From Sphaerodactylus townsendi (Eukaryota), in contig NC_059430.1 of assembly GCF_021028975.2 (NCBI RefSeq), forward strand, positions 3,906,001-3,970,000: a stretch of DNA of 64,000 nucleotides, in the 5' to 3' direction. The notes under the pieces were generated by a model. The model had not been told where the DNA came from and did no database searches. It was given only the letters and a program-made list of their open reading frames with translations. Positions within the stretch are counted from its first letter, which is position 1, and the number at the start of each line of letters is the position of its first letter. Shown in pieces: positions 9,016 through 64,000 of the stretch. A program made the translations under genes and the position numbers.

Positions 9016-9292
9016 CAATAGACCAATCCTTCTGTAACAGACTGAAGATTTTTACCTATAAGTAATTTGCGTAAGCATTTAAGCCTCAACAAGAAAAAAA
9101 ACTATCTCAGAACAAGTGAAAACGTGCATGGTCAGATGGATGCAAAACTTTGAAGAAACAACTTTTCACCAATGGGAAACCTTAAGCAAGGACGGTATCA
9201 CATGTATTGCCATTAAGAGCAAACTGGGACAAGATGTTGTATTGATGGTACATCATCCCAAAGGATATGAACAAGATGGACTAGAAGTGGGC

Positions 9293-9790
9293 CAGCAGTG
9301 GGCCAGAAAGGGCTGAGGAGCTTGACAGAGGGCTTTTCTCAAAGCCACATCTTTTAAACAGTGTATTTTAAACAGGGGGTTTCTCTTTTTTTCTCCTTGT
9401 CCTAGGGCTGCTGATTGGTGGAAGCTGCTGAAGGGTGGGGCTTCTCACATTTGTAAATCTTTTCAGTTAGTGCTGAAGGGGTGGGGCTTCTCACATTTTT
9501 AAATCTTTTCAGTTAGTCTCTGGAACCAGCAGAGAAGAGGAGCAGTGGAGGACAGCAGTGGGCCAGAAAGGGCTGAGGAGCTTGACAGAGGGCTTTTCTC
9601 AAAGCCACATCTTTTAAACAGTGTATTTTAAACAGGGGGTTTCTCTTTTTTTCTCCTTGTCCTAGGGCTGCTGATTGGTGGAAGCTGCTGAAGGGTGGGG
9701 CTTCTCACATTTGTAAATCTTTTCAGTTAGTGCTGAAGGGGTGGGGCTTCTCACATTTTTAAATCTTTTCAGTTAGTCTCTGGAACCAGC
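9293..9790 (+). promoter_or_regulatory. CR1 5' tandem monomers (about 1.9 x 260 bp), putative internal promoter
   Basis: GGCCAGAAAG recurs at 9301 and 9561; each unit has CTGATTGG (inverted CCAAT) and two GGGTGGGGC boxes. Confidence 0.7.
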
Positions 9791-9923: not shown

Positions 9924-10826
9924 ATGAAGACAGGAAGCCAGCAGGGGGATGGGGGCTTTCCAGTGTTTTGCACTGAGTGTCGCATGTATGACTATCTGCC
10001 ACTAGGGCAGAAGTCGTGGGTGTGCCCTCGCTGCAATGAGTTCCTGGCACTCAAGGAACATGTGCGTTCTCTTGAAGCCAAGGTGGCAGACCTGGAGAAG
10101 CTGAGAGAGGCAGAGAGGGCAACAAACGAGGCTTTCGGGGACCTAGCAGCCAGGTCCCACTCCCAAGGTGACATCTCTTCAGATGTCATGGAGAATGAGA
10201 GTCTGGGTGACGGAGGGTGCCAGTCTGAGGTGGTGGAAGATGCTCCCTTAGATGGGACCCCTTCCTTAGCTGGTGGTCAGATATCCTCTCGCACTGAGGA
10301 TACCCCTCGGGGAGGTGGGGGGCTCCTTGTAGTGGGTGATTCGATCATTAGGAATATAGAGAGTTGGGTTTGTGACAGGCGTGATGACCGCATGGTGACT
10401 TGCCTGCCTGGTGCGAAGGTTGCGGATGTCACGCTTCGTCTAGATAGGCTGTTAGACAGTGCTGGGGTGGAGTCAGCAGTTGTGGTCCACATTGGTACCA
10501 ATGACATTGGGAAATGTAGCCGGGAGGTTCTGGAAGCGAAATTTAGGCTGCTAGGAAAAAGGTTAAAATCCAGGACCCCCAAGGTGGCATTCTCCGAAAT
10601 GCTACCTGTTCCACGCGCAGGGAGAGCTAGGCAAGCGGAGATACAGGGTCTCAATGCGTGGATGAGAAGGTGGTGTAAGGCAGAGGGTTTCAGCTTTGTC
10701 AGGAACTGGGGAACCTTTTGGGATAAGGCAGGCCTGTACAAAAGGGACGGGCTTCATCTTAACCAAAGAGGAACCAGGCTGCTGGCGCTCAACGTTAAAA
10801 AGGTGGCAGAACAGCTTTTAAACTGA
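9924..10826 (+). CDS. CR1 ORF1p: CxxC..CxxC zinc finger, coiled coil and SGNH/GDSL esterase, 300 aa
   Basis: CTEC...CPRC, heptad stretch LKEHVRSLEAKVADL, esterase blocks GDSII, HIGTND, DGLH. Confidence 0.93.
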   Translation: MKTGSQQGDGGFPVFCTECRMYDYLPLGQKSWVCPRCNEFLALKEHVRSLEAKVADLEKLREAERATNEAFGDLAARSHSQGDISSDVMENESLGDGGCQSEVVEDAPLDGTPSLAGGQISSRTEDTPRGGGGLLVVGDSIIRNIESWVCDRRDDRMVTCLPGAKVADVTLRLDRLLDSAGVESAVVVHIGTNDIGKCSREVLEAKFRLLGKRLKSRTPKVAFSEMLPVPRAGRARQAEIQGLNAWMRRWCKAEGFSFVRNWGTFWDKAGLYKRDGLHLNQRGTRLLALNVKKVAEQLLN

Positions 10827-10855
10827 TCCTTGGGGGAAAGCCGACAGGAGCTGAG

Positions 10856-13327
10856 GTGACTTCGGTTCGGAATACAGAGTCCATGGGGATGCAGACACAG
10901 AGAGAGGTTTTTCTAAATCAACCACATACAAGCGAGGAGCATAGCAATGTGATAAGTGATAGTGTCTACAAAAGGCTAGAGGGCAAAACACATAAATCCC
11001 AGGTTAAGGACAGAGACAGAGTATACAAGTGTCTCTATGCTAATAGTAGAAGCATTCGACCTACAATGGGAGAGCTGGAGTACAGAGTTTTGAAGGAGGA
11101 CATTGATATAGTGGGCATCACGGAGACATGGTGGAATGAGGAGAACCAGTGGGATGCTGTTATCCCAGGTTACAGGCTCTACAGGAAGGATAGGACAGGG
11201 CGTATTGGGGGTGGGGTGGCCCTCTACATCAAAGAGAGCATAGTGTCACATAAAATAGACAATGCAGGGGGAGCTGATTCCTCTACAGAAGCACTGTGGA
11301 TATCAATACCAGGGGTGAAGCAAAGTTTAACATTAGGAATATATTATCGTCCCCCTGACCAAAGTGCACAAGAGGATTCTGAGATGGAAAAAGAAATTAG
11401 AGAGGCCAACAAAAGCAAAAATGTCGTGGTAATGGGCGATTTTAACTATCCCCACATAAACTGGAAAAATGCATGTTCAGGTCATAGTAAGGAGAGAACA
11501 TTCCTGGATATGCTAAATGACTGTGGCTTAGAGCAGATGGTTGTAGAACCAACCAGGGGAGATGTGATCCTAGATCTAATTCTATGTGGGACCCAGGACC
11601 TGGTGCGGGAAGTCAGTGTTGTTGAGCCGATAGGGAACAGCGACCACAATGCTGTCAGATTCAGTATCTCTGCATGCGAACAAGTGACAATTACTAATGT
11701 AGTTACATTTGCCTTCAGAAAGGGAAATTTCTCAAAGATGAGGGGGATAGTGCGCAGGAAGCTGAAAGGGAAAATCAAGAGAGTCAAAAATGTCCAAGGT
11801 GCTTGGAGGTTATTTAAAAACACAGTCTTAAAAGCTCAGCTGGAATGTGTTCCGCAGGTTAGGAAAGGCAGCGCCCAGTCCAAAAGAAAGCCACCATGGT
11901 TAACAAGGGAGGTTGAGGTAATTATTAGGAAAAAAAAGATGTCTTTTAGAAAATGGAAGTCCAACTTAACTGATGAAGAATACCAGAGAGAACACAAATG
12001 GTGGCAAAAGAGAAGCAAGTTAGCTGTAAGGGAGGCAAAAAAGGATTATGAGGAACGCATGGCTGCGAACATCAAGACTAGCAACAAACAGTTCTTCAAG
12101 TACATCAAAAGCAGGAAGCCAGCTAGGGAAGCGGTAGGTCCGTTAGACGATGAAGGAACAAAAAGTGTGCTAAAAGGTGACAGGGAGATTGCAGAGAAGC
12201 TGAATGAATTCTTTGCATCTGTCTTCACCCAAGAGGAGGTGAGGAAAATTCCTGCACCTGAACCAAGCTTCTTAGGAGGTGAATCCGAGGAACTAGCGAA
12301 GTTAGTGGTAGACAAGGAAGAAGTTCTGGCAGCCATTGATAAACTAAATGCTACCAAATCCCCTGGCCCAGATTGCATTCATCCAAGAGTTCTTAAAGAG
12401 CTCAAGCATGAAATTGCTGATGTTCTCACATTAATATGCAACTTATCCCTGAAATCAGGCTCCATCCCTGAAGACTGGAAGATGGCCAATGTCACACCAA
12501 TCTTTAAGAAAGGGTCTAGGGGGGACCCGGGAAATTACAGGCCAGTCAGTTTGACATCTGTTCCTGGTAAATTAGTAGAATCTATCATTAAAGATAAAAT
12601 TATTAAACATGTAGAAAAGCAAGATCTGCTGAGGAAGAGTCAGCATGGCTTTTGTAGAGGCAAGTCCTGTCTTACAAACTTACTAGAGTTCTTTGAGGGT
12701 GTAAACAGACATGTGGATAAGGGGGAACCAGTGGACATTGTCTACTTGGATTTCCAAAAGGCTTTTGACAAAGTTCCTCACCAGAGACTGTTGAGAAAAC
12801 TCAGCAATGAAGGAATAAGAGGGGAAGTCCTCCTATGGATTAAAAACTGGTTGAGGAACAGGAAACAAAGAGTGGGTGTAAATGGGAAGTTCTCACAATG
12901 GAGAGATGTAGGGAGTGGTGTCCCCCAAGGATCCGTTTTGGGACCAGTGCTCTTTAACTTATTCATAAATGACCTGGAAGTAGGGGTGGGTAGCGTGGTG
13001 GCCAAGTTTGCAGATGATACCAAATTATGTAGGGTGGTGAGAACCACAAAGGATTGCGAAGAGCTCCAAGCGGACCTTGATAAATTAGGTGAGTGGGCTA
13101 AGAAATGGCAAATGCAGTTCAATGTAGCTAAATGTAAAGTGATGCACATAGGGGCAAAAAATCCAAACTTCACATACACGCTACAGGGGTCAGTGCTATC
13201 AGTCACAGACCAGGAAAGGGATTTAGGCGTCTTAGTTGATAGTTCCATGGGAATGTCAACTCAATGCATGGCAGCTGTAAAAAAGGCAAACTCTATGCTG
13301 GGGATCATTAGAAAAGGAATTGATAAT
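10856..13327 (+). CDS. CR1 ORF2p: APE endonuclease and reverse transcriptase (open until the gap)
   Basis: GITETWW, GDFN, SDH (APE); YRPVSLTS, LDFQKAFD, GVPQGSVLGP, FADD (RT). The listed start is GTG; first ATG is at 10883; the frame is open from 10799. Confidence 0.95.
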
Positions 13328-13486
13328 NNNNNNNNNNNNNNNNNNNNNNNNNNNNNNNNNNNNNNNNNNNNNNNNNNNNNNNNNNNNNNNNNNNNNNNNN
13401 NNNNNNNNNNNNNNNNNNCATCCTGCATGTGAGCTCCCAAAGGCACCTGGTCTGCTAAGGCATTTGCAATCTGAGATCAAGGAGGA

Positions 13487-16459
13487 TCAAGATTGGTAGC
13501 CATAGATTGACTTCTCCTCCATAAATCTGTCCAAGCCCTTTTTAAAGCTATCCAGGTTAGTGGCCATCACCACCTCCTGTGGCAGCATATTCCAAACACC
13601 AATCACACGTTGCGTGAAGAAGTGTTTCCTTTTATTAGTCCTAATTCTTCCCCCCAGCATTTTCAATGTATGCCCCCTGGTTCTAGTATTGTGAGAAAGA
13701 GAGAAAAATTTCTCTCTGTCAACATTTTCTACCCCATGCATAATTTTATAGGCTTCAATCATATCCCCCCTCAGACGTCTCCTCTCCAAACTAAAGAGTC
13801 CCAAACGCTGCAGCCTCTCCTCATAAGGAAGGTGCTCCAATCCTTCAATCATCCTCGTTGCCCTTCTCTGCACTTTTTCTATCTCTTCGATATCCTTTTT
13901 GAGATGTGGCGACCAGAACTGAACACAGTACTCCAAGTGCGGTCGCACTACTGCTTTATATAAGGGCATGACAATCCTTGCAGTTTTATTATCAACTCCT
14001 TTCCTAATTATCCCCAGCATAGAGTTTGCCTTTTTCACAGCTGCCATGCATTGAGTTGACATTCCCATGGAACTATCAACTAAGACGCCCAAATCCCTTT
14101 CCTGGTCTGTGACTGATAGCACTGACCCCTGTAGCCTGTATGTGAAGTTTGGATTTTTTGCCCCTATGTGCATCACTTTACATTTAGCTACACTGAACTG
14201 CATTTGCCATTTCTTAGCCCACTCACCTAATTTATCAAGGTCCACTTGGAGCTCTTTGCAATCCTTTGTGGTTCTTACCACCCTACATAATTTGGTATCA
14301 TCTGCAAACTTAGCCACCACACTACCCACCCCTACTTCCAGGTCATTTATGAATAAGTTAAAGAGCACTGGTCCCAAAACGGATCCTTGGGGGACACCAC
14401 TCCCTACATCTCTCCATTGTGAGAACTTCCCATTTATACCCACCCTTTGTTTCCTGTTCCTCAACCAGTTTTTAATCCATAGGAGGACTTCCCCTCTTAT
14501 TCCTTCATTGCTGAGTTTTCTCAACAGTCTCTGGTGAGGAACTTTGTCAAAAGCCTTTTGGAAATCCAAGTAGACAATGTCCACTGGTTCCCCCTTATCC
14601 ACATGTCTGTTTACACCCTCAAAGAACTCTAGTAAGTTTGTAAGACAGGACTTGCCTCTACAAAAGCCATGCTGACTCTTCCTCAGCAGGTCTTGCTTTT
14701 CTACATGTTTAATAATTTTATCTTTAATGATAGATTCTACTAATTTACCAGGAACAGATGTCAAACTGACTGGCCTGTAATTTCCTGGGTCCCCCCTAGA
14801 CCCTTTCTTAAAGATTGGTGTGACATTGGCCATCTTCCAGTCTTCAGGGATGGAGCCTGATTTCAGGGATAAGTTGCATATTAATGTGAGAACATCAGCA
14901 ATTTCATGCTTGAGCTCTTTAAGAACTCTTGGATGAATGCAATCTGGGCCAGGGGATTTGGTAGCATTTAGTTTATCAATGGCTGCCAGAACTTCTTCCT
15001 TGTCTACCACTATCTTCGCTAGTTCCTCGGATTCACCTCCTAAGAAGCTTGGTTCAGGTGCAGGAATTTTCCTCACCTCCTCTTGGGTGAAGACGGATGC
15101 AAAGAATTCATTCAGCTTCTCTGCAATCTCCCTGTCATCTTTTAGCACACCTTTTGTTCCTTCATCATCTAACGGGCCTACCGCTTCCCTAGCTGGCTTC
15201 CTGCTTTTGATGTACTTGAAGAACTGTTTGTTGCTAGTTTTGATGTTCGCAGCCATGCGTTCCTCATAATCCTTTTTTGCCTCCCTTACAGCTAACTTGC
15301 TTCTCTTTTGCCACCATTTGTGTTCTCTCTGGTATTCTTCATCAGTTAAGTTGGACTTCCATTTTCTAAAAGACATCTTTTTTTTCCTAATAATTTCCTC
15401 AACCTTCCTTGTTAACCATGGTGGCTTTCTTTTGGACTGGGCGCTGCCTTTCCTAACCTGCGGAACACATTCCAGCTGAGCTTTTAAGACTGTGTTTTTA
15501 AATAACCTCCAAGCACCTTGGACATTTTTGACTCTCTTGATTTTCCCTTTCAGCTTCCTGCGCACTATCCCCCTCATCTTTGAGAAATTTCCCTTTCTGA
15601 AGGCGAATGTAACTACATTAGTAGTTGTCACTTGTTCGCATGCAGAGATACTGAATCTGACAGCATTGTGGTCGCTGTTCCCTATAGGCTCAACAACACT
15701 GACTTCCCGCACCAGGTCCTGGGTCCCACATAGAATTAGATCTAGGATCACCTCTCCCCTGGTTGGTTCCACAACCATCTGCTCTAAGCCACAGTCATTT
15801 AGCATATCCAGGAATGTTCTCTCCTTACTATGACCTGAACATGCATTTTTCCAGTTTATGTGGGGATAGTTAAAATCGCCCATTACCACGACATTTTTGC
15901 TTTTGTTGGCCTCTCTAATTTCTTTTTCCATCTCAGAATCCTCTTGTGCACTTTGGTCAGGGGGACGATAATATATTCCTACTGTTAAACTATGCTTCAC
16001 CCCTGGTATTGATATCCACAGTGCTTCTGTAGAGGAATCAGCTCCCCCTGCATTGTCTATTTTATGTGACATTATGCTCTCTTTGATGTAGAGGGCCACC
16101 CCACCCCCAATACGCCCTGTCCTATCCTTCCTGTAGAGCCTGTAACCTGGGATAACAGCATCCCACTGGTTCTCCTCATTCCACCATGTCTCTGTGATAC
16201 CCACTATATCAATGTCCTCCTTCAAAACTCTGTACTCCAGCTCCCCCATTTTAGGTCGAATGCTTCTACTATTAGCATAGAGACACTTGTATACTCTGTC
16301 TCTGTCCCTAACCTGGGATTTATGTGTTTTGCCCTCTAGCCTTTTGTAGACACTATCACTTATCACATTGCTATGCTCCTCGCTTGTATGTGGTTGATTT
16401 AGAAAAACCTCCCTCTCTGTCTGCATCCCCATGGACTCTGTATTCCGAACCGAAGTCAC
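13487..16459 (-). CDS. CR1 ORF2p, APE-RT, 990 aa, intact
   Basis: Same motifs as copy 1 plus the CR1-typical C-terminus (RPHLEYCVQFWSP, LERRRLRGDM, WNMLP). Confidence 0.96.
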   Translation of the reverse strand: MTSVRNTESMGMQTEREVFLNQPHTSEEHSNVISDSVYKRLEGKTHKSQVRDRDRVYKCLYANSRSIRPKMGELEYRVLKEDIDIVGITETWWNEENQWDAVIPGYRLYRKDRTGRIGGGVALYIKESIMSHKIDNAGGADSSTEALWISIPGVKHSLTVGIYYRPPDQSAQEDSEMEKEIREANKSKNVVVMGDFNYPHINWKNACSGHSKERTFLDMLNDCGLEQMVVEPTRGEVILDLILCGTQDLVREVSVVEPIGNSDHNAVRFSISACEQVTTTNVVTFAFRKGNFSKMRGIVRRKLKGKIKRVKNVQGAWRLFKNTVLKAQLECVPQVRKGSAQSKRKPPWLTRKVEEIIRKKKMSFRKWKSNLTDEEYQREHKWWQKRSKLAVREAKKDYEERMAANIKTSNKQFFKYIKSRKPAREAVGPLDDEGTKGVLKDDREIAEKLNEFFASVFTQEEVRKIPAPEPSFLGGESEELAKIVVDKEEVLAAIDKLNATKSPGPDCIHPRVLKELKHEIADVLTLICNLSLKSGSIPEDWKMANVTPIFKKGSRGDPGNYRPVSLTSVPGKLVESIIKDKIIKHVEKQDLLRKSQHGFCRGKSCLTNLLEFFEGVNRHVDKGEPVDIVYLDFQKAFDKVPHQRLLRKLSNEGIRGEVLLWIKNWLRNRKQRVGINGKFSQWRDVGSGVPQGSVLGPVLFNLFINDLEVGVGSVVAKFADDTKLCRVVRTTKDCKELQVDLDKLGEWAKKWQMQFSVAKCKVMHIGAKNPNFTYRLQGSVLSVTDQERDLGVLVDSSMGMSTQCMAAVKKANSMLGIIRKGVDNKTARIVMPLYKAVVRPHLEYCVQFWSPHLKKDIEEIEKVQRRATRMIEGLEHLPYEERLQRLGLFSLERRRLRGDMIEAYKIMHGVENVDREKFFSLSHNTRTRGHTLKMLGGRIRTNKRKHFFTQRVIGVWNMLPQEVVMATNLDSFKKGLDRFMEEKSIYGYQS

Positions 16460-16488
16460 CTCAGCTCCTGTCGGCTTTCCCCCAAGGA

Positions 16489-17391
16489 TCAGTTTAAAAG
16501 CTGTTCTGCCACCTTTTTAACGTTGAGCGCCAGCAGCCTGGTTCCTCTTTGGTTAAGATGAAGCCCGTCCCTTTTGTACAGGCCTGCCTTATCCCAAAAG
16601 GTTCCCCAGTTCCTGACAAAGCTGAAACCCTCTGCCTTACACCACCTTCTCATCCACGCATTGAGTCCCTGTATCTCTGCTTGCCTAGCTCGCCCTGCAC
16701 GTGGAACAGGTAGCATTTCGGAGAATGCCACCTTGGGGGTTCTGGATTTTAACCTTTTTCCTAGCAGCCTAAATTTAGCTTCCAGAACCTCCCGGCTACA
16801 TTTCCCAATGTCATTGGTACCAATGTGGACCACAACTGCTGACTCCACCCCAGCACTGTCTAACAGCCTATCTAGACGAAGCGTGACATCCGCAACCTTC
16901 GCACCAGGCAGGCAAGTCACCATGCGGTCATCACGCCTGTCACAAACCCAACTCTCTATATTCCTAATGATCGAATCACCCACTACAAGGAGCCCCCCAC
17001 CTCCCCGAGGGGTATCCTCAGTGCGAGAGGATATCTGACCACCAGCTAAGGAAGGGGTCCCATCTAAGGGAGCATCTTCCACCACCTCAGACTGGCACCC
17101 TCCATCACCCAGACTCTCATTCTCCATGACATCTGAAGAGATGTCACCTTGGGAGTGGGACCCGGCTGCTAGGTCCCTGAAAGCCTCGTTTGTTGCCCTC
17201 TCTGCCTCTCTCAGCTTCGCCAGGTCTGCCACCTTGGCTTCAAGAGAACGCACACGTTTCTTGAGTGCCAGGAGCTCATTGCAGCGAGGGCACACCCATG
17301 ACTTCTGTCCTAGTGGCAGATAGTCATACATGTGACACTCAGTGCAAAACACTGGAAAGCCCCCCTCCCCCTGCTGGCTTCCTGCCTTCAT
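16489..17391 (-). CDS. CR1 ORF1p, zinc finger and esterase, 300 aa, intact
   Basis: 291 of 300 residues identical to copy 1. Confidence 0.93.
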   Translation of the reverse strand: MKAGSQQGEGGFPVFCTECHMYDYLPLGQKSWVCPRCNELLALKKRVRSLEAKVADLAKLREAERATNEAFRDLAAGSHSQGDISSDVMENESLGDGGCQSEVVEDAPLDGTPSLAGGQISSRTEDTPRGGGGLLVVGDSIIRNIESWVCDRRDDRMVTCLPGAKVADVTLRLDRLLDSAGVESAVVVHIGTNDIGKCSREVLEAKFRLLGKRLKSRTPKVAFSEMLPVPRAGRARQAEIQGLNAWMRRWCKAEGFSFVRNWGTFWDKAGLYKRDGLHLNQRGTRLLALNVKKVAEQLLN

Positions 17392-17514
17392 ATCTAATTT
17401 TGTTTAGATATTCAAATATTGATTTTAATTAGTGCCTCCCTCTTAAGGTTTCTCTCCCTTCTACTATCCGTTAAAATATGTTCCTATTTAGTAAAACACC
17501 TGCGCGCGCCGTTA

Positions 17515-18582
17515 GCCCTCTGTAAAGAAAAATCAGAGCTTCTCAGCCCTTTCTGGCACACTTCTCAGCCCTTTCTGGCCCACTGCTGTTCTCCAGTGCT
17601 CCTCTTCTCTGCTGGTTCCAGAGACTAACTGACAAGATTTAAAAATGTGAGAAGCCCCACCCCTTCAGCACTAACTGAAAAGATTTACAAATGTGAGAAG
17701 CCCCACCCCTTTAGCAGCCTCCACCAATCAGCAGCCCTAGGACAAGGAGAAAAAAGAGAAACCCCCTGTTTAAAATACACTGTTTAAAAGATGTGGCTTT
17801 GAGAAAAGCCCTCTGTAAAGAAAAATCAGAGCTTCTCAGCCCTTTCTGGCACACTTCTCAGCCCTTTCTGGCCCACTGCTGTTCTCCAGTGCTCCTCTTC
17901 TCTGCTGGTTCCAGAGACTAACTGACAAGATTTAAAAATGTGAGAAGCCCCACCCCTTCAGCACTGAAAAGATTTACAAATGTGAGAAGCCCCACCCCTT
18001 TAGCAGCCTCCACCAATCAGCAGCCCTAGGACAAGGAGAAAAAAGAGAAACCCCCTGTTTAAAATACACTGTTTAAAAGATGTGGCTTTGAGAAAAGCCC
18101 TCTGTAAAGAAAAATCAGAGCTTCTCAGCCCTTTCTGGCACACTTCTCAGCCCTTTCTGGCCCACTGCTGTTCTCCAGTGCTCCTCTTCTCTGCTGGTTC
18201 CAGAGACTAACTGACAAGATTTAAAAATGTGAGAAGCCCCACCCCTTCAGCACTGAAAAGATTTACAAATGTGAGAAGCCCCACCCCTTTAGCAGCCTCC
18301 ACCAATCAGCAGCCCTAGGACAAGGAGAAAAAAGAGAAACCCCCTGTTTAAAATACACTGTTTAAAAGATGTGGCTTTGAGAAAAGCCCTCTGTAAAGAA
18401 AAATCAGAGCTTCTCAGCCCTTTCTGGCACACTTCTCAGCCCTTTCTGGCCCACTGCTGTTCTCCAGTGCTCCTCTTCTCTGCTGGTTCCAGAGACTAAC
18501 TGACAAGATTTAAAAATGTGAGAAGCCCCACCCCTTCAGCACTAACTGAAAAGATTTACAAATGTGAGAAGCCCCACCCCTT
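17515..18582 (-). promoter_or_regulatory. CR1 5' tandem monomers (about 3.7 x 289-293 bp)
   Basis: TGTAAAGAAAAA recurs at 17521, 17814, 18103, 18392; homologous to the copy 1 monomers. Confidence 0.75.
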
Positions 18583-21805: not shown

Positions 21806-22780
21806 CTAACTTAGAGACTGAGGGTGTTCACACTTCCTCCAGCTTTCCGCTGCCTTCTTGAGGGCCCCCTTCACCTCCTTGTTGCGGAGGCTGTAAATGA
21901 GGGGGTTCAACATCGGGGTGATTACGCAGAACATGACAGAGACCAAAGTGCCTGTCGCCAAGGAGTAACCAGTGCTTGGCCCCTGATAGTTCAATAACGC
22001 ATTTCCATAGTAAATGAAGACAACAGTGAGGTGAGACGCACAAGTGGAAAAGGCTTTGCGCTTGCCTGTCGTGGAACGAATCCTCAAGATGGAGGACAGG
22101 ATGAAGACGTATGAGAAAATGGTGAACGCAAAGGGCCCCCCACCCATAAAAAGTCCTGCTACGTGGTCTACCACTTCATTGATGTGTGCATCATTGCAAG
22201 CCATTTTCATCAGTGGAGGGAGATCGCAGAAGATGTGATGAATCTGGTTGACTCCACAGAACTCCAGCCTGGTGCTTAGAGCTGTGTGTAGAACAGAGTT
22301 TAAGAAGCCCCAGACCCAAGTGGCAAAGGCCAGTATTGTACACACCTTGGTGTTCATGAGGTGGGAGTAATGTAGAGGTTTACAGATGGCGGCATAGCGG
22401 TCGTAGGCCATGACAGCCAGAAGTGCAGTCTCTGCCCCTGTGAAAGACATCAGGAAGAACATCTGGGCCATGCACTGGTTGTAGGAGATGGTCTGTTGCT
22501 GGCGCAAAAAGTTCACCACCATCTTAGGGACGGTGACTGAGGAGAGGCAAATATCTAAGGAAGAGAGATGGCTGAGGAAATAATACATGTGACTGTGGAG
22601 ACTGGGATCCAGTTGAATCACAATCACTATCATGAGGTTCCCCAGCACCGTGACCAAGTAGATGGCCAAGAATGCCAAGGCGAGAAACGTCTGACCATAC
22701 AGAATTCCAGAGAACCCCAGGAAGACAAATTCCACCACCTGCGTCTGATTCCTGATTCCCATGGAGAGCTCAAAACTCAT
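21806..22780 (-). CDS. Olfactory receptor (class II), intact, 324 aa (OR1 in this report)
   Basis: N-glycosylation site NQT, GN, LHSHMYYFL, MAYDRYAAICKPLHY, HIFCD, KAFSTCASHL, PMLNPLIYSLRN. Confidence 0.97.
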   Translation of the reverse strand: MSFELSMGIRNQTQVVEFVFLGFSGILYGQTFLALAFLAIYLVTVLGNLMIVIVIQLDPSLHSHMYYFLSHLSSLDICLSSVTVPKMVVNFLRQQQTISYNQCMAQMFFLMSFTGAETALLAVMAYDRYAAICKPLHYSHLMNTKVCTILAFATWVWGFLNSVLHTALSTRLEFCGVNQIHHIFCDLPPLMKMACNDAHINEVVDHVAGLFMGGGPFAFTIFSYVFILSSILRIRSTTGKRKAFSTCASHLTVVFIYYGNALLNYQGPSTGYSLATGTLVSVMFCVITPMLNPLIYSLRNKEVKGALKKAAESWRKCEHPQSLS

Positions 22781-22814
22781 CTGTAAAGGGAAAATAATTG
22801 AACAAGAGAGAAGA

Positions 22815-23280
22815 ATTCAAGAAGGATATTGACAATCTGGAGCAGGTGCAGAGGAGGGCAGCCCAAATGGTATAAGGTCAGGAATCCATGTCCTTTTTGG
22901 AGAGATTTAGGGACCTGGGTATGTTTGCTTTGGAAAGAGAAGGTTAAATGGTGACCTGATAGCCATGTTTAAATATTTGAAGGGATGTCATGTTGAAGAA
23001 GGAGCAAGCTTCTTTTCTGCAGCTCCAGGGAGTAGGACCAGGAGTCATGGATACAAAATATAAGGAAAGAGATTCCACCAAACAGTAGGAAGAACTTCTT
23101 GACTGTCAGGGCTATTCGACAGTGGAATCCACTGCCTCGGAGTGTGGTGGAGTCTCCTTTGGAGGTTTTTAAACAAAGGCTGGTTGGCCATATGTTGGGA
23201 GTGCTTGATTATGTGTTCTTGCTTGGCAGGGGGTTGGATTGGATGACCTTTGTGGTCTCTTCCAATTCTGTAATTCTGAG
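22815..23280 (+). mobile_element. Older CR1-family 3' fragment in the OR1 intron (paralog 38535-38977)
   Basis: Degenerate LEQVQRRA / WNPLP coding remnants and an ATTCTGT-type tail. Confidence 0.75.
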
Positions 23281-25136: not shown

Positions 25137-25605
25137 TGGAATATGCTGCCACAGGAGGTGGTGATGGCCACTAACCTGGATAGCTTTAAAAGGGGCTTGG
25201 ACAGATTTATGGAGGAGAAGTCGATTTATGGCTACCAATCTTGATCCTCCTTGATCTCAGATTGCAAATGCCTTAGCAGACCAGGTGCTCAGGAGCAGCA
25301 GCCGCAGAAGGCCATTGCGTTCACATCCTACATGTGAGCTCCCAAAGGCACCTGGTGGGCCACTGAGAGTAGCAGAGAGCTGGACTAGATGGACTCTGGT
25401 CTGATCCAGCTGGCTCGTTCTTATGTTCTTATGTTCTTAAATGCCTTAGCAGACCAGGTGCTCAGGAGCAACAGCAGCAGAAGGCCATTGCTTTCCCATC
25501 CTGCATGTGAGCTCCCAAAGGCACCTGGTGGGCCACTGCGAGGAGCAGAGTGCTGGACTAGATGGGCTCTGGTCTGATCCAGCTGGCTTGTTCTTATGTT
25601 CCTAA
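25137..25605 (+). mobile_element. Young CR1 3' fragment with tandemly duplicated 3' UTR
   Basis: ORF2 end (EEKSIYGYQS), UTR and (TTCTTATG)n tail, then UTR repeated at about 25438-25603; empty site near 41170. Confidence 0.9.
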
Positions 25606-30911: not shown

Positions 30912-31842
30912 CTAACTTCTAGAGTGACAGTGTCCAGGTGGCCCCCAGCTTTCCACTGCCTTCTTCAGGGCCTCTTTCACCTCCTTGTTGCGGAGGCTGT
31001 AAACGATGGGGTTCAGCATTGGGGTGATTACACAGAACATAATGGAGACCAAAGTGCCAGTCGCCAAGGAGTAACCAGCACGTGGCCTCTGATAGTTCAG
31101 TAGTGCGTTCCCATAGTAAATGAAGACAACCGTGAGGTGAGACGCACAAGTGGAAAAGGCTTTGTGCTTGCCAGTAGTGGAACGAATCTTCAAGATGGAG
31201 GACAGGATGAAAACGTATGAGAAAATAATGACCAGGAGGGGCCCCACACCCATAAAAAGTCCTGATATGTGATCTGCCACTTCATTGATGTGTGCATCAT
31301 TGCAAGCAATTTTCATCAGTGGAGGAAGATCACAGAAGATGTGATGAATCTGGTTGACTCCACAGAACTCCAACCTGGTGTTTAGAGCTGTTAAAAGAGC
31401 GGAGTCTAGAAAACCCCAGATCCAAGTGGCAACGGCCAGTATGGTGCACACCTTGGTGTTTATGAGGCGGGAGTAATGCAGAGGTTTACAGATGGCCAGC
31501 AGGCCACCCTCTGCTCCCATGAAAGAGATGAGGAAGAACATCTGGGCCATGCACTCGTTGTAGGAGATGGTCTGTTGCTGGTGCAAGAAGTTCACCAGGA
31601 TTTGGGGGACGGTGACCGAGGAGATGCAAATATCTAAGCAGGAGAGATGGCTGAGGAAATAATACATGGGGGTGTGGAGACTGGAGTCCAGTTGAATCAT
31701 AATACATATCGTGAGGTTCCCCAGTACAGTGACCAAGTAGAATGGCTAGGAACACCAAGAAGAGGTAGACGTGGCCGTTCGGAATGCCTGAGAAACCCAG
31801 GAGGACAAATTCCACCACTTGTGTTTGATTCTTGATTCCCAT
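30912..31842 (-). pseudogene. Olfactory receptor pseudogene (OR2; paralog of 45243-46199)
   Basis: +1 insertion at about 31741 in TM1 and a 27-bp deletion near 31496 removing VMAYDRYAA. Confidence 0.93.
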
Positions 31843-31897: not shown

Positions 31898-32492
31898 TAC
31901 CCTGAAAATAAGCCCTAGCATGATTTTTTGGGATTTTTTGGAGGATGCTTGAAATATAAGCCCTACTCCAAAAACAAGCCCCAGTTATAGATTCCCCAGT
32001 GCAGTTGATCTGGTCATGTGGGGGGGCGGGATGCAAAATCATGGGGGGGGGAAATAAGACATAAAAAAGGAAACACTTCTTCACGCAACGTGTGATTGGT
32101 GTTTGGAACATGCTGCCACAGGAGGTGGTGATGGCCACTAACCTGGATAGCTTTAAAAAGGGCTTGGACAGATTTATGGAGGAGAAGTCGATCTATGGCT
32201 ACCAATCTTGACCCTCCTTGATCTCAGATTGCAAATGCCTTAGCAGACCAGGTGCTCAGGAGCAGCAGCAGCAGCAGGCCATTGCTTTCACCTCCTGCAC
32301 GTGAGCTCCCAAAGGCACCTGGTGGGCCACTGCGAGTAGCAGAGTGCTGGACTGGATGGACTCTGGTCTGATCCAACAGGCTAGTTCCTATGTTCTTATG
32401 TTCTTATGACATCCCCTGAAAATAAGCCCCAACACATCTTTTGGAGCAAAAATTAATATAAGACCCTGTCTTATTTTCGGGGAAATACGGTA
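31898..32492. mobile_element. Tc1/mariner (Tigger-like) MITE remnant interrupted by a young CR1 3' fragment (about 32062-32408, +)
   Basis: Repeated AAAATAAGCCC motifs, terminus TTTTCGGGGAAATACGG-TA; nested CR1 ends in (TTCTTATG)n. Confidence 0.6.
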
Positions 32493-37516: not shown

Positions 37517-38491
37517 CTAGCTTATAGAGTGGTGATGCTTAGACTTCCTCCAGCTTTCTGCTGCCTTCTTGAGGGCCCCCTTCACCTCCTTGTTTCGGAG
37601 GCTGTAGATGAGGGGGTTCAACATCGGGGTGATTACGCAGAACATGATGGAAACCAAAGTGCCCGTCGCCACTGAGTAACCACCACTTGGCCCCTGATAG
37701 TTCAAGATCCCATTTCCATAGTAAATGAAGACAACCGTGAGGTGAGACGCACAAGTGGAAAAGGCTTTGCGTTTGCCAGTAGTGGACTGAATCTTCAAGA
37801 TGGAGAACAGGATGAAGACATATGAGAAAATGATGAACACGAAGGGCCCCCCAGACACAAAAACTCCTGCCATGTGGTCTGCCACTTCATTGATGTGTGT
37901 GTCGCTGCAAGCCATTTTCATCAGTGGAGGGAGATCGCAGAAGATGTGATGAATCTGGTTGATTCCACAGAAGTCCAGCCTGGTGCTTAGAGCCGTGTGC
38001 AGAGCAGAGTTTAAGAAGCCCCAGAACCAAGTGGCAAAGGCCAGTACGGTGCACACCTTGGTGTTCACGAGGCGGGAGTAATGCAGAGGTTTACAGATGG
38101 CGGCGTAGCGGTCGTAGGCCATGACAGCCAGCAGTGCAGCCTCTGCCCCTGTGAAAGTCATCAGGAAGAACATCTGGGCCATGCACTGGTTGTAGGAGAT
38201 GGTCTGTTGTTGGAGCAGGAGGTTCACCATGATCTTAGGGACGGTGACAGAGGAGAGGCAAATATCTAAGCAGGAGAGGTGGCTGAGGAAATAATACATG
38301 GGGGTGTGGAGGCTGGATTTCAGTTGAATCATAGTAAATATCATCAGGTTCCCCAGTACAGTGACCAAGTAGATGGCCAAGAATGCCAAGGCGAGATAAC
38401 TTTGACCATACAAAATGCCAGAGAACCCCAGGAGGACAAATTCCACCACCTGCGTCTGATTCCTGATTCCCAGGGAGAGCTCAAAACTCAT
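37517..38491 (-). CDS. Olfactory receptor (class II), intact, 324 aa (OR3)
   Basis: LHTPMYYFL, MAYDRYAAICKPLHY, KAFSTCASHL, PMLNPLIYSLRN. Confidence 0.97.
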   Translation of the reverse strand: MSFELSLGIRNQTQVVEFVLLGFSGILYGQSYLALAFLAIYLVTVLGNLMIFTMIQLKSSLHTPMYYFLSHLSCLDICLSSVTVPKIMVNLLLQQQTISYNQCMAQMFFLMTFTGAEAALLAVMAYDRYAAICKPLHYSRLVNTKVCTVLAFATWFWGFLNSALHTALSTRLDFCGINQIHHIFCDLPPLMKMACSDTHINEVADHMAGVFVSGGPFVFIIFSYVFILFSILKIQSTTGKRKAFSTCASHLTVVFIYYGNGILNYQGPSGGYSVATGTLVSIMFCVITPMLNPLIYSLRNKEVKGALKKAAESWRKSKHHHSIS

Positions 38492-41350
38492 CTGTAAAGG
38501 GAAAATAATTGAACAAGAGAGAAGAATTCAAGAAGGACATTGACAATCTGGAGCAGGTGCAGAGGAGGGCGGCCCAAATGGTATAAGGTCAAAAATCAAC
38601 ATCCTTTTCAGAGAGATTTAAGGAGCTGGGTATGTTTCACTTGGGAAAGAGAAGGTTAAATGGTGACCTGATAGCCGTGTTTAAATATTGAAAGGGATGT
38701 CATGTTGAAGAGGGAGCAAGCTTGTTTTCTGCTGCTCCAGGGAGTAGGACCAGGAGTCATGGATACAAAATATAACAAAAGAGATGACACCTAAACAGTA
38801 GGAAGAACTCCTTGACTGTCAGGGCTATTGGACAGTGGAATCCACTGCCTCGGAGTGTGGTGGAGTCTCTTTTGGAGGTTTTTAAACAAAGGCTGACTGG
38901 CCATATGTAGGGAGTGCTTGATTATGTGTTCTTGCTTGGCAGGGGGTTGGATTGGATGACCTTAGTGGTCTCTTCCATACCTTGCATGAGAAGTGAATTT
39001 GGGATACTACCAAGCAGTCTGAAACTCACTGAAGCCATGTGGAAGAAGTGGGGTTCATGTATGAGTGCCCCATGTGGATCTTGGCTGTGTTACCTTTTTT
39101 AGGGTCTCTCTCCTCCTTGCTCAACTGAAACTGGTCTCTCCAGCATCCCAGGTGATCATCTCAGTGCCAAAGGGGCAGGGTCTCTTCTCTGACCTCCACT
39201 CCCTGGATCTGTCTGCTGCCTTTTATACATCTGATCTCTCCCTTGCTTCTTGAGTACAGTTTTCTTGACTCTTTGCTCAGTTGGGTCTCTGTGTTATAAT
39301 TGGCCAGGCTCTCTTAGAATGAGTGGGGGGTGTGTGTGTGGGAAGGTGTATGCTGTGAGGGTTTTTGTTTGTTTGTGGGCTATTTCAGGTCTTCTGTCCG
39401 TGTCCCTTTCAGTGCTTTCATTGTATTCTAGTCTACATGAGTTATTCAAAGCCCGGCCCTTTCCTCACAAATCTCCTAAAACATTCATAGAATGTTTACA
39501 ATCCGCCATTTTGTTCCTGCTCACTCCCTTGAAATGATTCCTGACTGCCATTGTGTAGTTTTTTCGAGTTCTGTGTTGAATCCATGCTTCCGTGCTTCAC
39601 AGCCTGAGCCTTTTCTGCGTTCTCACATAGCTGATCCTTTGAAGACCCTAATCCTCCCAAAAATAAAGCAACAAAGAGAGAACTGCTGCAAATAAATAGG
39701 TGAGGGGGAACTGAGCGAGCTCAGAAAATGGCGCCAAGGAGGAAGCAGAGAAGCGTGGGAAACACAGCCAATAGATCACACAGCAACTGAAGATGTTTTC
39801 AGAATGTTTCAGCCAGAGAATTGTTTTACTGTGAAACTGTCAATCTGAGTTCCGTGGAAGAATGATGGGATCAAATGTCAGGCTCGGAGAAGAAGGTTGG
39901 CCCCGGTTCACCCTCCAGACCTTATGTCTGACTATCTGGATTCAGGAATCCCAGGTCATCCCAAAGGAGTCACCTCCCTCCCTCTCTCCCATCCACAGGA
40001 AACCTAAACAGTATCCCTGCATCTGTTGATGTTCATTTCCTGCACCTCCCTTTTTCCTTTTCTCACCTTCCCCAGTGCTGATGTGTTGATTGAGATTATC
40101 CTTGTAATAGGATTCGATGGTGGTGAGTTCTGCTTACTTTACTTTGGAAAGCACAAGAGCACTATCAGCTATTATAAGCAAATCACTGTGTATCATTGTG
40201 ATTTTATTCAAACTGTTCTGATTGCATCGAGTCAAGCTGCCAAACTGGAAAAGACACTCACTGCTGTTGTTCTTCATTCTAGGAAAATATATGCAGGCAA
40301 GACTCCAGCCCCCAATCCCCCCCCCCCCCGCAATACTCTGGGAACATCAGGACACATTTTACTTGATTCTTTACAAATCAACATGCGTATTCAGTGAAGG
40401 AAAAATGCCAACTACTGTATGATTTGGAGGATCGTGTTTCCTCGTGGCTAAGGATTCCCTGGGCAACTGACGCCCACCTAACATCCTCCTGTTTAACTTG
40501 AGGGACAGCACAAAAGATTCTTCGGAAAGGTCAGAAGGAATTGAGAATGACCCTTGAATGCCAGGTTGGCTTTCAAATTTTCTTTGTAAATTAAATCAGG
40601 GATTTACACTACTTAAAAAAGGTAACTGATTTAAGCACAAGTTACCCACCTTAGCACATGGATGACAAGTGAAGGCTGAGTCCCACCTTCTCCTCAAGTC
40701 TGTCCATTATTGTTCATCCTGTCCTCAAGATGCGAACAACTTAGCCTCCTGTCTTCAGGAGGTTCGTGCATGGCAGCCCCTAGACATGGAATCTACTCTA
40801 GGTCTTGGAAGCCTCTTCCCTCCTCCAGCGTGACGTCTCCAATGCTCTGGAGCAGCCAGAGGTATTCAAAGCTAATGATGCCCAGAGGGCCCAATCCTGT
40901 TCATGAGCTGAGGGCCTTGGGGATGCTCTTGGATTGGAAGCCCTCAGGGAGTGAGGAGCACTGGTTGGAAGCTCAGAGAATTGGGACGGATTGCATCTGC
41001 TCTAATCACCATGTTTTCTCAAAGAGTTCTCCTAAAACCAAAACATGGATGTGTATTACAGCCAGGAATGGAGTCTAGAATAGACTTATCCTTATTAATG
41101 ATTTTTTAAAAAAATGCCTATAGCCAAAGGTGTGTGACTGACAACGAGAAAATTCTATTACTACTGGAATAAGTTTCCTCTGCAGGGAGTCTAGAATGTG
41201 GAGCCATTGGAGCCCTGAGTGCTGTATTTTTGATGACTAGATCTCAGTAACAATTGTCTATGCAACCTATTGGCAGTTTGAATTTAATCTATAGTGGCTG
41301 AAGAATTCCTTTTAAGGTGCAAGAATTGCCAAAAGGAAGAATCACTCTAA

Positions 41351-45242: not shown

Positions 45243-46199
45243 CTAACTTTGAGAGTGGTGGTGTCCAGATGGCCTCCAGCTTTCCACCGCCTTCTTCAGG
45301 GCCCCCTTCACTTCTTTGTTGCGGAGGCTGTAGATGATGGGGTTCAGAACTGGGGTGATGACGCAGAACATGACGGAGACCAAAATGCCAGTTGCCAAGG
45401 AGTAGCCAGCACTTGGACCCTGATAGTTCAGTAGTGCGTTTCCATAATAAATGAAAACTACAGTGAGGTGAGACGCACAAGTGGAAAAGGCTTTGCGTTT
45501 GCCAATAGTGGAACGAAACTTCAAGATGGAGGACAGGATGAAGACATATGAGAAAACAATGAACACAAATGGCCCCCCACCCACAAAAACTCCTCCCATG
45601 TGGTCTGCCACTTCATTGATGTGTACATCATTGCAAGCCATTTTCATCAGTGGAGGGAGATCGCAGAAGATGTGATGAATCTGGTTGACTCCACAGAAGT
45701 CCAACCTGGTGCTTAGAGCTGTCTGTAGAACGGAGTCTAGAAAACCCCAGACCCAAGCGGCAAAGGCCAGTACGGTGCACACCTTGGTGTTCATGAGGCG
45801 GGAGTAATGCAGAGGTTTACAGATGGCGGCATAGCGGTCGTAGGCCATGACAGCCAAAAGAGCACCCTCCGCCCCCGTGAAAGAGACAAGGAAGAACATC
45901 TGGGCCATGCACTCGTTGTAGGAGATGGTCTGTTGCTGGCGCAAGAAGTTCACCAGAATTTGTGGGACGGTGACAGAGGAGATGCAAATATCTAAGCAGG
46001 AGAGGTGGCTGAGGAAATAATACATGGGGGTGTGGAGACTTGAGTCCAGCTGAATCATAATACATATCGTGAGGTTCCCCAGCACAGTGACCAAGTAGAT
46101 GGCTAAAAATGGCAAGAAGAGGTAGATGTAGCCATTCGGAATGCCTGAGAAACCCAGGAGGACAAATTCCACCACTTGTGTTTGATTCTTGATTCCCAT
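45243..46199 (-). CDS. Olfactory receptor (class II), intact, 318 aa from the first ATG (OR4)
   Basis: All canonical OR motifs; the ORF-track start at 46217 is GTG, the first ATG (MGIKNQT) is at 46199. Confidence 0.96.
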   Translation of the reverse strand: MGIKNQTQVVEFVLLGFSGIPNGYIYLFLPFLAIYLVTVLGNLTICIMIQLDSSLHTPMYYFLSHLSCLDICISSVTVPQILVNFLRQQQTISYNECMAQMFFLVSFTGAEGALLAVMAYDRYAAICKPLHYSRLMNTKVCTVLAFAAWVWGFLDSVLQTALSTRLDFCGVNQIHHIFCDLPPLMKMACNDVHINEVADHMGGVFVGGGPFVFIVFSYVFILSSILKFRSTIGKRKAFSTCASHLTVVFIYYGNALLNYQGPSAGYSLATGILVSVMFCVITPVLNPIIYSLRNKEVKGALKKAVESWRPSGHHHSQS

Positions 46200-46244
46200 T
46201 GAGAGCTGAGAACTCACCTGTAAGGGGAAAATAATCGACTAAGA

Positions 46245-49991: not shown

Positions 49992-50263
49992 AACATAAGA
50001 ACATAAGAACAAGACAGCTGGATCAGACCAGAGTCCATCTAGTCCAGCACTCTGCTACTCGCAGTGGCCCACCAGGTGCCTTTGGGAGCTCACGTGCAGG
50101 AGGTGAAAGCAATGGCCTGCTGCTGCTGCTGCTGCTGCTGCTCCTGAGCACCTGGTTTGCTATTTGCAATCTGAGATCAAGGAGGATCAAGATTGGTAGC
50201 CATAAATCGACTTCTCCTCCATAATTCTGTCCAAGCCCTTTTTAAAGCTAATCAGGTTAGTGG
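49992..50263 (-). mobile_element. Young CR1 3' fragment
   Basis: EEKSIYGYQS end, 3' UTR and (CATAAGAA)n. Confidence 0.9.
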
Positions 50264-50704
50264 CACTGGGCAGAGCAGTGGCAGACACATGGCTGGGCCG
50301 TGGAGGGGGCGTTCCGGGGTGGGGGGGCAGGTGGTACTGCAGCAGGGGTGCATGGTGCATGCATGCCCTGAGCACAGTTTTGCCTCATTCCGCCCCTGTT
50401 TACAACCAAGGGTACCCACCAGGAAACCGGAACTTCCTCCCTAACTCCAGACCTAGCTTTCCAATTGCCTGTTTGGAATTTCCATTCAGATGGCTCATTG
50501 CCTCCTCAGACTTTACACATAGACCCCAGACTGTTTGTCTCTACTTTGTATATGACCAGTGTCACCATAAAACAGCATAAATCACTAGCCTTATGTAAGT
50601 CTTACAGGGATTTATTTTCCCTATACTGAGTTGCAGTCTTCTTCCGTCTTGGAACAGTATAACTCAGCTTAGGGTTAGTCTGTAAGACTTTTCTGTCTAT
50701 CCTT

Positions 50705-57721: not shown

Positions 57722-58495
57722 TGTTAGCCCAAGGCCAGATTAGAATTTTCTTAATAATAATAGAACTGCCTCACTATCTAGAATCGCCGTTTCAGCCACC
57801 TAGGCCAAGGGGCAAGGGACTCTTCTTTCCCCAAGCCAGAGGAAAGAAAGAGAGGCAAGAGTTCCCAATCAAAGCAAGAATCCTTGCATAGAATAAAAAC
57901 AAAGTTTATTTCTAAGCCAGCACAGGTCTCACCAGAGTTGAGAGCTGCCCCGAATAGCCGAAAGGTTCAGGGTTTTAAAGGGTCTTCTTAGGGTACATCA
58001 AAGCAGAGTCATATACATTGCAAAAGATTTAGGGTTGCAACAAATTATCCCACGTCAAACATTTGGTATAAGTTCCCAAGCATCTATGATGTTTCTAAAC
58101 AAAGTGAATGTAGGGCTAGTTATCTATTGCATCCTGACTGCTCCAACTATCACCTTGTTTATGGTACTTCTTGTAACAACAGTAAGGTCATCTAGTTCCT
58201 GAGAGGCCAGGGAGGCAAAGACGGGGTGTTTAGACATTCGGGTTGTTTATGGCTATCTCTGCATATTGGAAAGTGTTATCTTCCCGATATCTGGCTGTAA
58301 ATTAGCCTGGTAGACTGAGGGGCTCCTCTGTCTATGGTGATGTGGTAGGTCAGGCAATTTGCTAAGGAATGTGTTTTGTTAACCTAAGAGCAGAGAGAGA
58401 GAGATCTATCTAAGTAATACTACTATATTCATATCCCTATATTGTATTGATATATTTCTTAAAGCATAATTTCCTGCTCTTCAGCGTTGCTCACA
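57722..58495 (-). repeat. ERV 3' LTR (774 bp)
   Basis: Follows PPT AAAAAGGGGGGA (about 58499-58510); termini TGTGAGC...GCTAACA; AATAAA at 57905-57910; TATA-like TTTAAAA near 57975. Confidence 0.85.
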
Positions 58496-60216: not shown

Positions 60217-60587
60217 TGGCACGGTGAGATAGGTTCTTTTAGGGACAGAAAGAGGTGTGGGGCAGTTATTGGGGTACACACAAACCCACAGGAGTATAAC
60301 TCGGGGAACCAAGGGTTATACTTATACGTGGCTGCATCCTCGATCTCAAGCTGGTCTCCGTAAAGGTCTATTTCCCCGTATAGGGTAGATACAATCTTAG
60401 GACCCCACTGAGGAAGGCTACTGGGGAGACGCTCAAAGATTGTTAAGTATTCTACAGTAATGTTTTCTACAGCAATACCATATACTTGTAGAGAATAGTG
60501 GGGACAGGGGCGACAGGCAGGAGCTAAGTAGGGTGCAATCCAATAACTGGGAAACGGGAGTTCAGATGGGGTAGGGAGCATATACAT
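60168..60587 (-). CDS. Hypothetical ERV accessory ORF (139 aa) between pol and env
   Basis: ATG-initiated, same strand as the viral genes, preceded by a pyrimidine tract and TTTCTTAG; no recognised homology. Confidence 0.4.
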   Translation of the reverse strand: MYMLPTPSELPFPSYWIAPYLAPACRPCPHYSLQVYGIAVENITVEYLTIFERLPSSLPQWGPKIVSTLYGEIDLYGDQLEIEDAATYKYNPWFPELYSCGFVCTPITAPHLFLSLKEPISPCQCSLDTLEYPQDPYCL

Positions 60588-60845
60588 ATGGGCAGCTAAG
60601 AAACTAGATCAAAGCACAAAGCTAAAATCACAGATAAAAAAAACTTTAAGTATTATCACAGTTCTGCCTCAGCCTCGTTGACGGTCCTTTCCAGCGATGT
60701 TTTCAACCGGGAGAGTTCTGCGGGCTGTTGAGTCGAACACAAAATATAGTTCAGCGTCACAGGACACCGGGTCCCTCGGAAAGGGAAAAACCCGGACTTA
60801 TGCCTCTACTGAAGACTGTATCTGGAAAATATTCCAACAGGTAGT

Positions 60846-63800: not shown

Positions 63801-64000
63801 CTTACGGCCATCCGGGTAAGACCACTCGAAAGCAAAAATGTCCCTACAAGCAGGATCCAGAGGCACAGAAAAAATGCATCCTTCAAATCAAGGCAGGTAA
63901 AATAGGAATGATCAGCGGGAATTAAGGTGAGCAAGGTGTAGGGGTTGGGAACGACGTCATGGAGATCTACCATAATTTGATTGATGCTGCGGAGATCATG
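60846..64000 (-). pseudogene. pol: ERV pol (RT, RNase H, integrase), disrupted
   Basis: LDLKDAFF, LPQGFKNSP, YVDD, TDGSS, SAQAAEL, YTDSRY, DFTELP, SDNG, PQSSGVVERMN, WKGPF; frameshifts near 63870, 63050, 61652 and TAA at 63243-63245. Confidence 0.93.

Follow-up and report, generated by a model that had tools for sequence, protein, structure and literature searches.

Several described systems solve the problem posed by a bicistronic RNA of the long interspersed nuclear element (LINE) type, in which the second open reading frame (ORF2) must be expressed at a low level. SART1, with its UAAUG stop–start, and mammalian L1 make a separate ORF2 protein (ORF2p) by reinitiation, according to the available parts of PMC3708506, PMC10275272 and PMC5009743. 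For TRE5-A and TRE3-A of Dictyostelium, L1-clade LINEs with an APE endonuclease, a figure legend of PMC5911963 states that a -1 frameshift is required for ORF2, so that -1 shifting in a LINE has a precedent. The same type of shift is used by the coronavirus IBV (1a/1b) and equine arteritis virus, on the words U_UUA_AAC, G_GGA_AAC and G_UUA_AAC (PMC5009743, in the portion covered), and there, as by analogy in retroviral gag-pol, a structural-type ORF is fused to a polymerase in the -1 frame. We here analyze the ORF1/ORF2 junction of a CR1-type LINE found in a 64,000-nucleotide stretch of Sphaerodactylus townsendi DNA (contig NC_059430.1, positions 3,906,001 to 3,970,000; hereafter the window, with positions counted from its first letter). 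Comparative evidence makes it likely that ribosomes undergo a programmed -1 frameshift at this junction, as had been proposed in an original prediction made from the letters of the window, which placed the shift at U_UUA_AAC and expected an ORF1–ORF2 fusion.

The CR1 site uses the same words as the viral sites, and these are among the shiftiest for mammalian ribosomes in the part of PMC5009743 consulted. It differs from them in that the stop codon lies directly past the heptamer, that no conserved pseudoknot was found 5-9 nucleotides downstream, and that the host is a non-LTR (long terminal repeat) retrotransposon. Unlike TRE5-A and TRE3-A, which belong to a different clade and have a different ORF1, the CR1 site occurs in vertebrate elements with an esterase ORF1; and in contrast to SART1 and L1, the CR1 evidence points to a fusion rather than to a separate ORF2p. 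The frameshift reading is supported because the heptamer is in phase with ORF1, shows the same nucleotides in distant CR1 lineages and varies mainly to other slippery words, and because ORF2 in the -1 frame is free of stops.

The proposed shift site and its conservation

In the window, the heptamer T_TTA_AAC ends ORF1 in exact phase (Table 1). The positions originally given for the heptamer, the stop codon, the opening of the -1 frame and the ATG at 10883 (with T at -3) are all correct; the -1 frame runs without a stop into the APE and reverse transcriptase (RT) region, as the ORF listing and Pfam confirm, and the fusion predicted at about 1301 amino acids comes to 300 for ORF1 plus 1001, i.e. 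1301. A second copy of the element, said to have the same junction, does carry the heptamer at 16492-16498 on the minus strand, but being 98.2% identical to the first across 3.5 kb it gives no independent support. The two strands of the window together contain 659 generic X_XXY_YYZ words and 29 cases of TTTAAAC, and the prior chance of one in-phase hit at an ORF end is about 0.5%; within the window alone, the heptamer exceeds chance modestly.

The junction pattern was found at 1144 places in the genome, against none for the reversed control. In the young family to which the window copies belong, the heptamer, the stop and the ATG at 10883 are unchanged in 78 distinct junction sequences, chosen as best matches and hence a biased set, and four sequencing runs (contigs of unknown kind) had no variant at a frequency of at least 5% at 10795-10828 or 10831-10862, with common variants at 10829 and 10830. 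We rejected the young family as a test of conservation, since it is too uniform and too biased by the way its members were picked, the own-genome searches with junction DNA and with three homologous proteins having returned mostly this family. More informative are older relatives: two older subfamilies of the same lineage (A and B) retain TTTAAAC, and a second, old lineage of the same genome, whose ORF1 ends in Arg-Ala-Leu-Asn (RALN), has it in 25 of 30 loci. For the subfamily tallies, 12 young-type rows and eight misassigned, deleted or non-homologous ones were removed from 60.

The strongest test is that of codon choice. Among 15 elements with pairwise ORF1 identities of 18-78%, TTA encodes the terminal Leu in 14 of 14 cases, and AAC the terminal Asn likewise in 14 of 14, counts which are not independent, the elements being related and representing some four to five deep lineages at the DNA level. 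Codon choice varies in every one of 34 other conserved columns (mean share of the top codon, 0.57), four-fold sites agree at only about 20-40% between deep lineages, and ORF2 identity between these is 28-44%. The heptamer is conserved beyond amino-acid needs. Free synonymous variation of the Leu-Asn codons, which the original prediction had proposed to look for, was not seen.

Thirty-four metagenome loci were also compared, of which 14 stop short of the ORF1 stop, three are L2-type and 17 are CR1-type with an ORF1 end. The last group has TTTAAAC in 13 cases, GGGAAAC and GTTAAAC in one each and a damaged site in two; both variants are themselves slippery words (G_GGA_AAC_UAG in L092, G_UUA_AAC_UAG in L091). 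Thirteen of these loci include the APE domain, which lies in the -1 frame at 11 and out of it only in two decayed copies; the conservation of phase in relatives that had been anticipated is borne out to that extent. Scans of viral contigs for relatives gave one truncated locus or nothing, and a scan of prokaryote genomes gave bacterial GDSL hydrolases only.

At the protein level, a Leu-Asn end is present in 20 of 22 aligned ORF1 homologues, including proteins named from turtles, a bony fish, a skate and a shark. Among 150 more distant ORF1 representatives 73 end in Asn, and the residue before it is Leu in 54, Gly in 10, Lys in three and another in six, with no case of Ile, Val, Met or Phe. The codons of X_XXA_AAC, namely TTA, GGA and AAA, specify Leu, Gly and Lys, respectively. 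In 53 of 54 cases, a codon ending in T is available for the residue preceding Leu-Asn (background 0.82). In proteins that do not end in Asn, a tripeptide compatible with a heptamer occurs at the matching place in 19 of 34, against a background of 96 of 510, a comparison made at the protein level only. As a separate observation, seven esterase ORF1s (P0099, P0138, P0144, P0153, P0164, P0165 and P0181) have x-Lys-Asn exactly 23 residues past the GxHL motif, where other esterase ORF1s end in Leu-Asn, and continue for 2-12 variable residues, which at the protein level is compatible with A_AAA_AAC without an adjacent stop; further esterase ORF1s have Gly-Phe, Phe-Leu or Phe-Phe at the Leu-Asn position, again at the protein level only.

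The -1 frame, the linker and the ORF2 start codon

From the heptamer to the first in-frame ATG (or to the start of the endonuclease, if that comes earlier), the -1 frame of 10 elements contains no stop in 223 codons, against 11 and 30 stops in the other two frames; in-frame stops ahead of the first ATG, another feature singled out in the original prediction, are thus absent from these relatives. Ahead of the endonuclease lies a linker of 33-84 codons, which shows mostly non-synonymous change between subfamilies and accepts in-frame insertions and deletions, such as the 45 nucleotides that distinguish L112 from L113. The ATG, on the other hand, shifts between lineages or is missing ahead of APE while the heptamer is kept, as was expected. 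It is codon 20 in the window element and codon 21 in old subfamily B, whereas old subfamily A lacks an ATG at codon 20 and has its first at codon 44; the RALN-ending lineage has it at codon 51, and metagenome elements at codon 2, 20, 26, 30 or 61. In L112 and L113 it lies eight codons inside the endonuclease, beyond the first Tyr-x-Asn strand, whose Asn we take, from work on the L1 endonuclease, to be catalytic.

The position of a restart codon is therefore not conserved, and an AUG at or near the stop of the SART1 type is not the rule: the ATG is 56 nucleotides past the stop in the window element and at most two nucleotides past it in only four of 10 distant elements. Among the ORF2 gene calls returned by the protein searches, three of seven begin inside the endonuclease; these may be truncated and were not used as evidence.

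RNA downstream of the heptamer and a possible mechanism

The first 47 nucleotides after the heptamer likely hold a cis-element, because they are better kept between the window element and the two old subfamilies (Table 1) than either the linker from +48 to +120 (identities of 0.55 and 0.49) or the start of APE (0.61-0.64). Two features are shared by distant lineages in this region, the adjacent stop and a G-run 7-12 nucleotides past the heptamer; no stem has a counterpart there. Of 16 elements, from about five deep lineages, 15 have a GGGG beginning between +8 and +13, whereas 1-9% of the 13-nucleotide segments of their ORF2s contain one.

The two downstream pairings originally put forward exist as sequence complementarity, but they are not supported as stimulators. 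The AUCCU..UGG/CCA..GGGAU stem is kept in old subfamily A; in a common variant of the young family (11 of 27 copies) one of its pairs is lost, and it begins three nucleotides past the heptamer, where it would be covered by the ribosome. The AGCCGA/UCGGUU pairing (10839-10844 with 10862-10867) is largely invariant in this lineage, and five of its six pairs are kept in the old subfamilies, but it shows no two-sided change and has no distant counterpart. It competes with a predicted hairpin (10848-10868) in which a single A-U pair has become G-C in old subfamily A, by change on both sides, and two inner pairs are broken in old subfamily B. A pseudoknot can be drawn in this lineage only and is weak, with a variable first stem of 3-4 base-pairs. 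Rfam gave no meaningful match for the junction RNA. The proposed RNA stems are not established.

We suggest that most ribosomes would stop at UGA and release the 300-residue ORF1 protein (ORF1p), and that some would slip back one base on U_UUA_AAC and read CUG instead of the stop. The latter would make a minority product of 1301 residues, a zinc-finger–esterase–endonuclease–RT fusion (..QLLN then LILGG..), joined through the flexible linker, the sequence of which would be free and the frame kept. The pause, a part of the mechanism with less support, might be caused jointly by arrival of the stop codon in the A site and by the G-run at the mRNA entry channel, possibly aided by a lineage-specific hairpin some 25 nucleotides downstream, rather than by a canonical pseudoknot. 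Stimulators other than pseudoknots are known from the arterivirus nsp2TF (nsp1beta with poly(C)-binding protein), from pea enation mosaic virus, where a stop lies three nucleotides past the site, and from synthetic G-quadruplexes (PMC5009743, in the part covered). The G-run and adjacent stop of CR1 may be likened to these, as a resemblance only.

Alternative explanations

Several observations weigh against a frameshift, in addition to the relatedness of the elements in the codon test. Two of the 22 aligned homologues do not end in Leu-Asn (Leu-Lys in Hemicordylus, Ile-Asn in one skate protein). L112 and L113, which have no ATG ahead of the endonuclease, are decayed copies, and the L113 linker contains two stops; in most lineages, moreover, the endonuclease is preceded by an in-frame ATG. 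No natural in-frame ORF1–ORF2 fusion was found, in a weak search. As to a stimulator, the 77 nucleotides 3′ of the heptamer fold no better than shuffled sequences (z -0.55), variation in the stems close to it shows no clear covariation, and a search of seven elements, 3′ untranslated region (UTR) included, revealed no recurring place for a long-range partner of the G-run. A separate ORF2p might instead be made by termination-reinitiation, as shown for SART1 and proposed for mammalian L1, or by internal initiation, at a downstream ATG or near-cognate codon, alone or alongside frameshifting. ATG 10883 is unchanged in the 78 best-match-biased young sequences, and it and a second in-frame ATG at 10889 are near-invariant in the young family; four of the 10 near-intact distant elements have TAG-NN-ATG, with the ATG two nucleotides past the stop; and the RALN-ending lineage keeps an ATG six codons before APE in both of its subfamilies (13 of 17 and seven of 10 copies). 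There are also models for such initiation, which is described as AUG-independent for L1 ORF2 (PMC5009743, in the part covered) and coupled through UAAUG in SART1 (PMC3708506, likewise in part). However, reinitiation predicts neither a fixed in-phase heptamer nor a switch to G_GGA_AAC, the ATG moves from codon 2 to codon 61 or is missing before APE, and upstream of it the frame is maintained without stops. We regard reinitiation as the sole mechanism as unlikely, and a frameshift as likely; reinitiation may provide an extra supply of ORF2 in lineages with a nearby ATG.

The heptamer and G-run could instead constitute some other RNA signal, such as a binding site for ORF1p, ORF2p or a host protein, a splice signal or a site of transcription slippage, that matches the slippery consensus by coincidence. 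The G-run, without a clear pairing partner, does resemble a protein-binding motif, and the 47-nucleotide block is conserved at the nucleotide level. But a frame-independent signal needs no X_XXY_YYZ phase, no -1 frame and no joint change of the three X letters, and the T4-A3 run is short for polymerase slippage, so that we find such a coincidence very improbable. It is even harder to believe that the Leu-Asn end is merely kept for the last helix of the esterase, with the -1 phase as an inherited accident. Leu-Asn does close that helix in the esterase alignment; yet its codons are invariant and those of all 34 control columns are not, which largely refutes the idea, and its Leu is replaced by Gly and Lys rather than by Ile, Val or Met, when a nearby conserved Leu swaps with Val or Ile in 16 of 60 cases.

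The two CR1-type copies and other features of the window

The window holds two young CR1-type copies oriented tail-to-tail (Table 1).

Table 1. Positions of the junction features and of the two CR1-type copies in the window
Feature	Position	Strand	Remarks
ORF1, copy 1	9924..10826	+	300 amino acids; N-terminal CX2CX14CX2C zinc finger, C-terminal SGNH/GDSL esterase, Leu-Asn-stop end
Slippery heptamer T_TTA_AAC	10817..10823	+	X_XXY_YYZ, in phase with ORF1
ORF1 stop TGA	10824..10826	+	directly 3′ of the heptamer; other lineages have TAG or TAA here
-1 frame/ORF2, copy 1	10799..13327	+	linker of about 69 codons, APE endonuclease, RT (Pfam)
47-nucleotide block after the heptamer	10824..10870	+	identity to the two old subfamilies 0.71 and 0.67
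G-run, candidate stimulator	10832..10836	+	8 nucleotides past the heptamer
Predicted 9-base-pair hairpin	10848..10868	+	24 nucleotides past the heptamer; z -3.5, for a segment picked after the fact
First in-frame ATG of the -1 frame	10883..10885	+	codon 20 past the shift site, weak context
Copy 2	13487..17391	-	ORF1 17391-16489; ORF2 16516-13487, -1 frame intact, 1009 amino acids from stop to stop
Tandem 260-nucleotide units, 5′ region of copy 1	9290..9790	+	
Tandem 289-nucleotide units, 5′ region of copy 2	17514-18582		

Both ORFs are whole in copy 2 only, since ORF2 of copy 1 meets an N at 13328 and is about 166 codons shorter. The esterase of ORF1 was recognized by Pfam (PF13472, E 8e-13) and by a profile search (2e-44 to 4c1b, a LINE ORF1 esterase), and the only Pfam families in ORF2 are RVT_1 and two endonuclease families, without RNase H. 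The element is probably a CR1-clade LINE with an esterase ORF1, a label based on its architecture and on named vertebrate ORF1 homologues; the closest named homologue, from Hemicordylus, is 70% identical and points to a lizard as the probable host. The same ORF1 architecture is seen in ZfL2-1, the source of esterase 4c1b, and in CR1 subgroup 7 with ORF1 type IVB (zinc finger/leucine zipper plus esterase) of Metcalfe and Casane 2014 (PMC4120745, in part). A short terminal repeat at the 3′ end is a feature of CR1-clade LINEs. The 3′ UTR of the window element contains a long inverted repeat surrounding a CAG-rich loop, and copy 2 terminates at an N stretch.

This stretch spans 13328-13418, and the 3′ end of copy 2 starts directly beyond it. 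Nowhere else in the window is there a match to the 3′ part that copy 1 lacks, which is why the pair is read as tail-to-tail with a 3′ truncation of copy 1. Three 3′ fragments of the same element lie at 25137-25360, 32035-32330 and 50075-50264. The tandem units 5′ of the copies are perfectly identical within each copy, differ in length between them (260 and 289 nucleotides) and resemble monomer promoters.

A different junction was seen in L117 (4477-5040), an L2-type element with an esterase ORF1, in which the endonuclease comes after the stop TGA-CTG without a change of frame, the frame being open for 187 codons. This looks like stop readthrough rather than a -1 shift, and is a lead only, as an in-frame ATG precedes the endonuclease; L117 is a single decayed copy, the junction of which is shared by L123 (744). 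Use of the ATG overlapping the stop in L117 and L123 was rejected, that frame closing after 67 codons. Elsewhere in the window, pol pieces resembling an endogenous retrovirus and an env-like ORF, open for 618 codons, occupy 58459-63887 (minus strand), and a cluster of single-exon genes resembling olfactory receptors, recognized from their translations, lies on the minus strand at 21806-22816, 30912-31745, 37517-38527 and 45243-46238. Finally, P0014, a gene model with a reptile-type CR1 ORF1–ORF2, is labelled as plant (Tanacetum) in a public source and is probably contamination.

Relation to earlier work and significance

No claim of a CR1 frameshift was found in a literature search that left the original CR1 descriptions and Repbase notes outside its scope, so that an earlier remark may exist. 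The word 'frameshift' does not occur in the available parts of PMC13343379, PMC3708506, PMC3905857 (on the esterase structure) and PMC4120745, CR1 is not mentioned in the first 300,000 of the 449,034 characters of PMC5009743, and the portion of PMC5006619 covered has nothing on -1 frameshifting in LINEs. The two ORFs of CR1 are described without a mechanism in PMC11835228 and PMC4316615, as far as their available parts extend. The novelty would thus lie in a classical slippery site, found unreported in the CR1 clade, with an apparently non-classical stimulator.

CR1-group elements are the dominant retrotransposons of most vertebrates (PMC13343379, in part), and the translation of LINE ORF2 has been called unclear (PMC3708506, in part). 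A conserved -1 shift, if true, would give a concrete and testable answer to this question for the CR1 clade, and would account for elements without a usable ORF2 start. The predicted ORF2 product would then be an esterase-tethered fusion of 1301 residues and not a protein beginning at the first ATG, which would be relevant to the design of active CR1 constructs and to the annotation of CR1 ORFs. It would also add a natural frameshift cassette with a non-canonical-looking stimulator.

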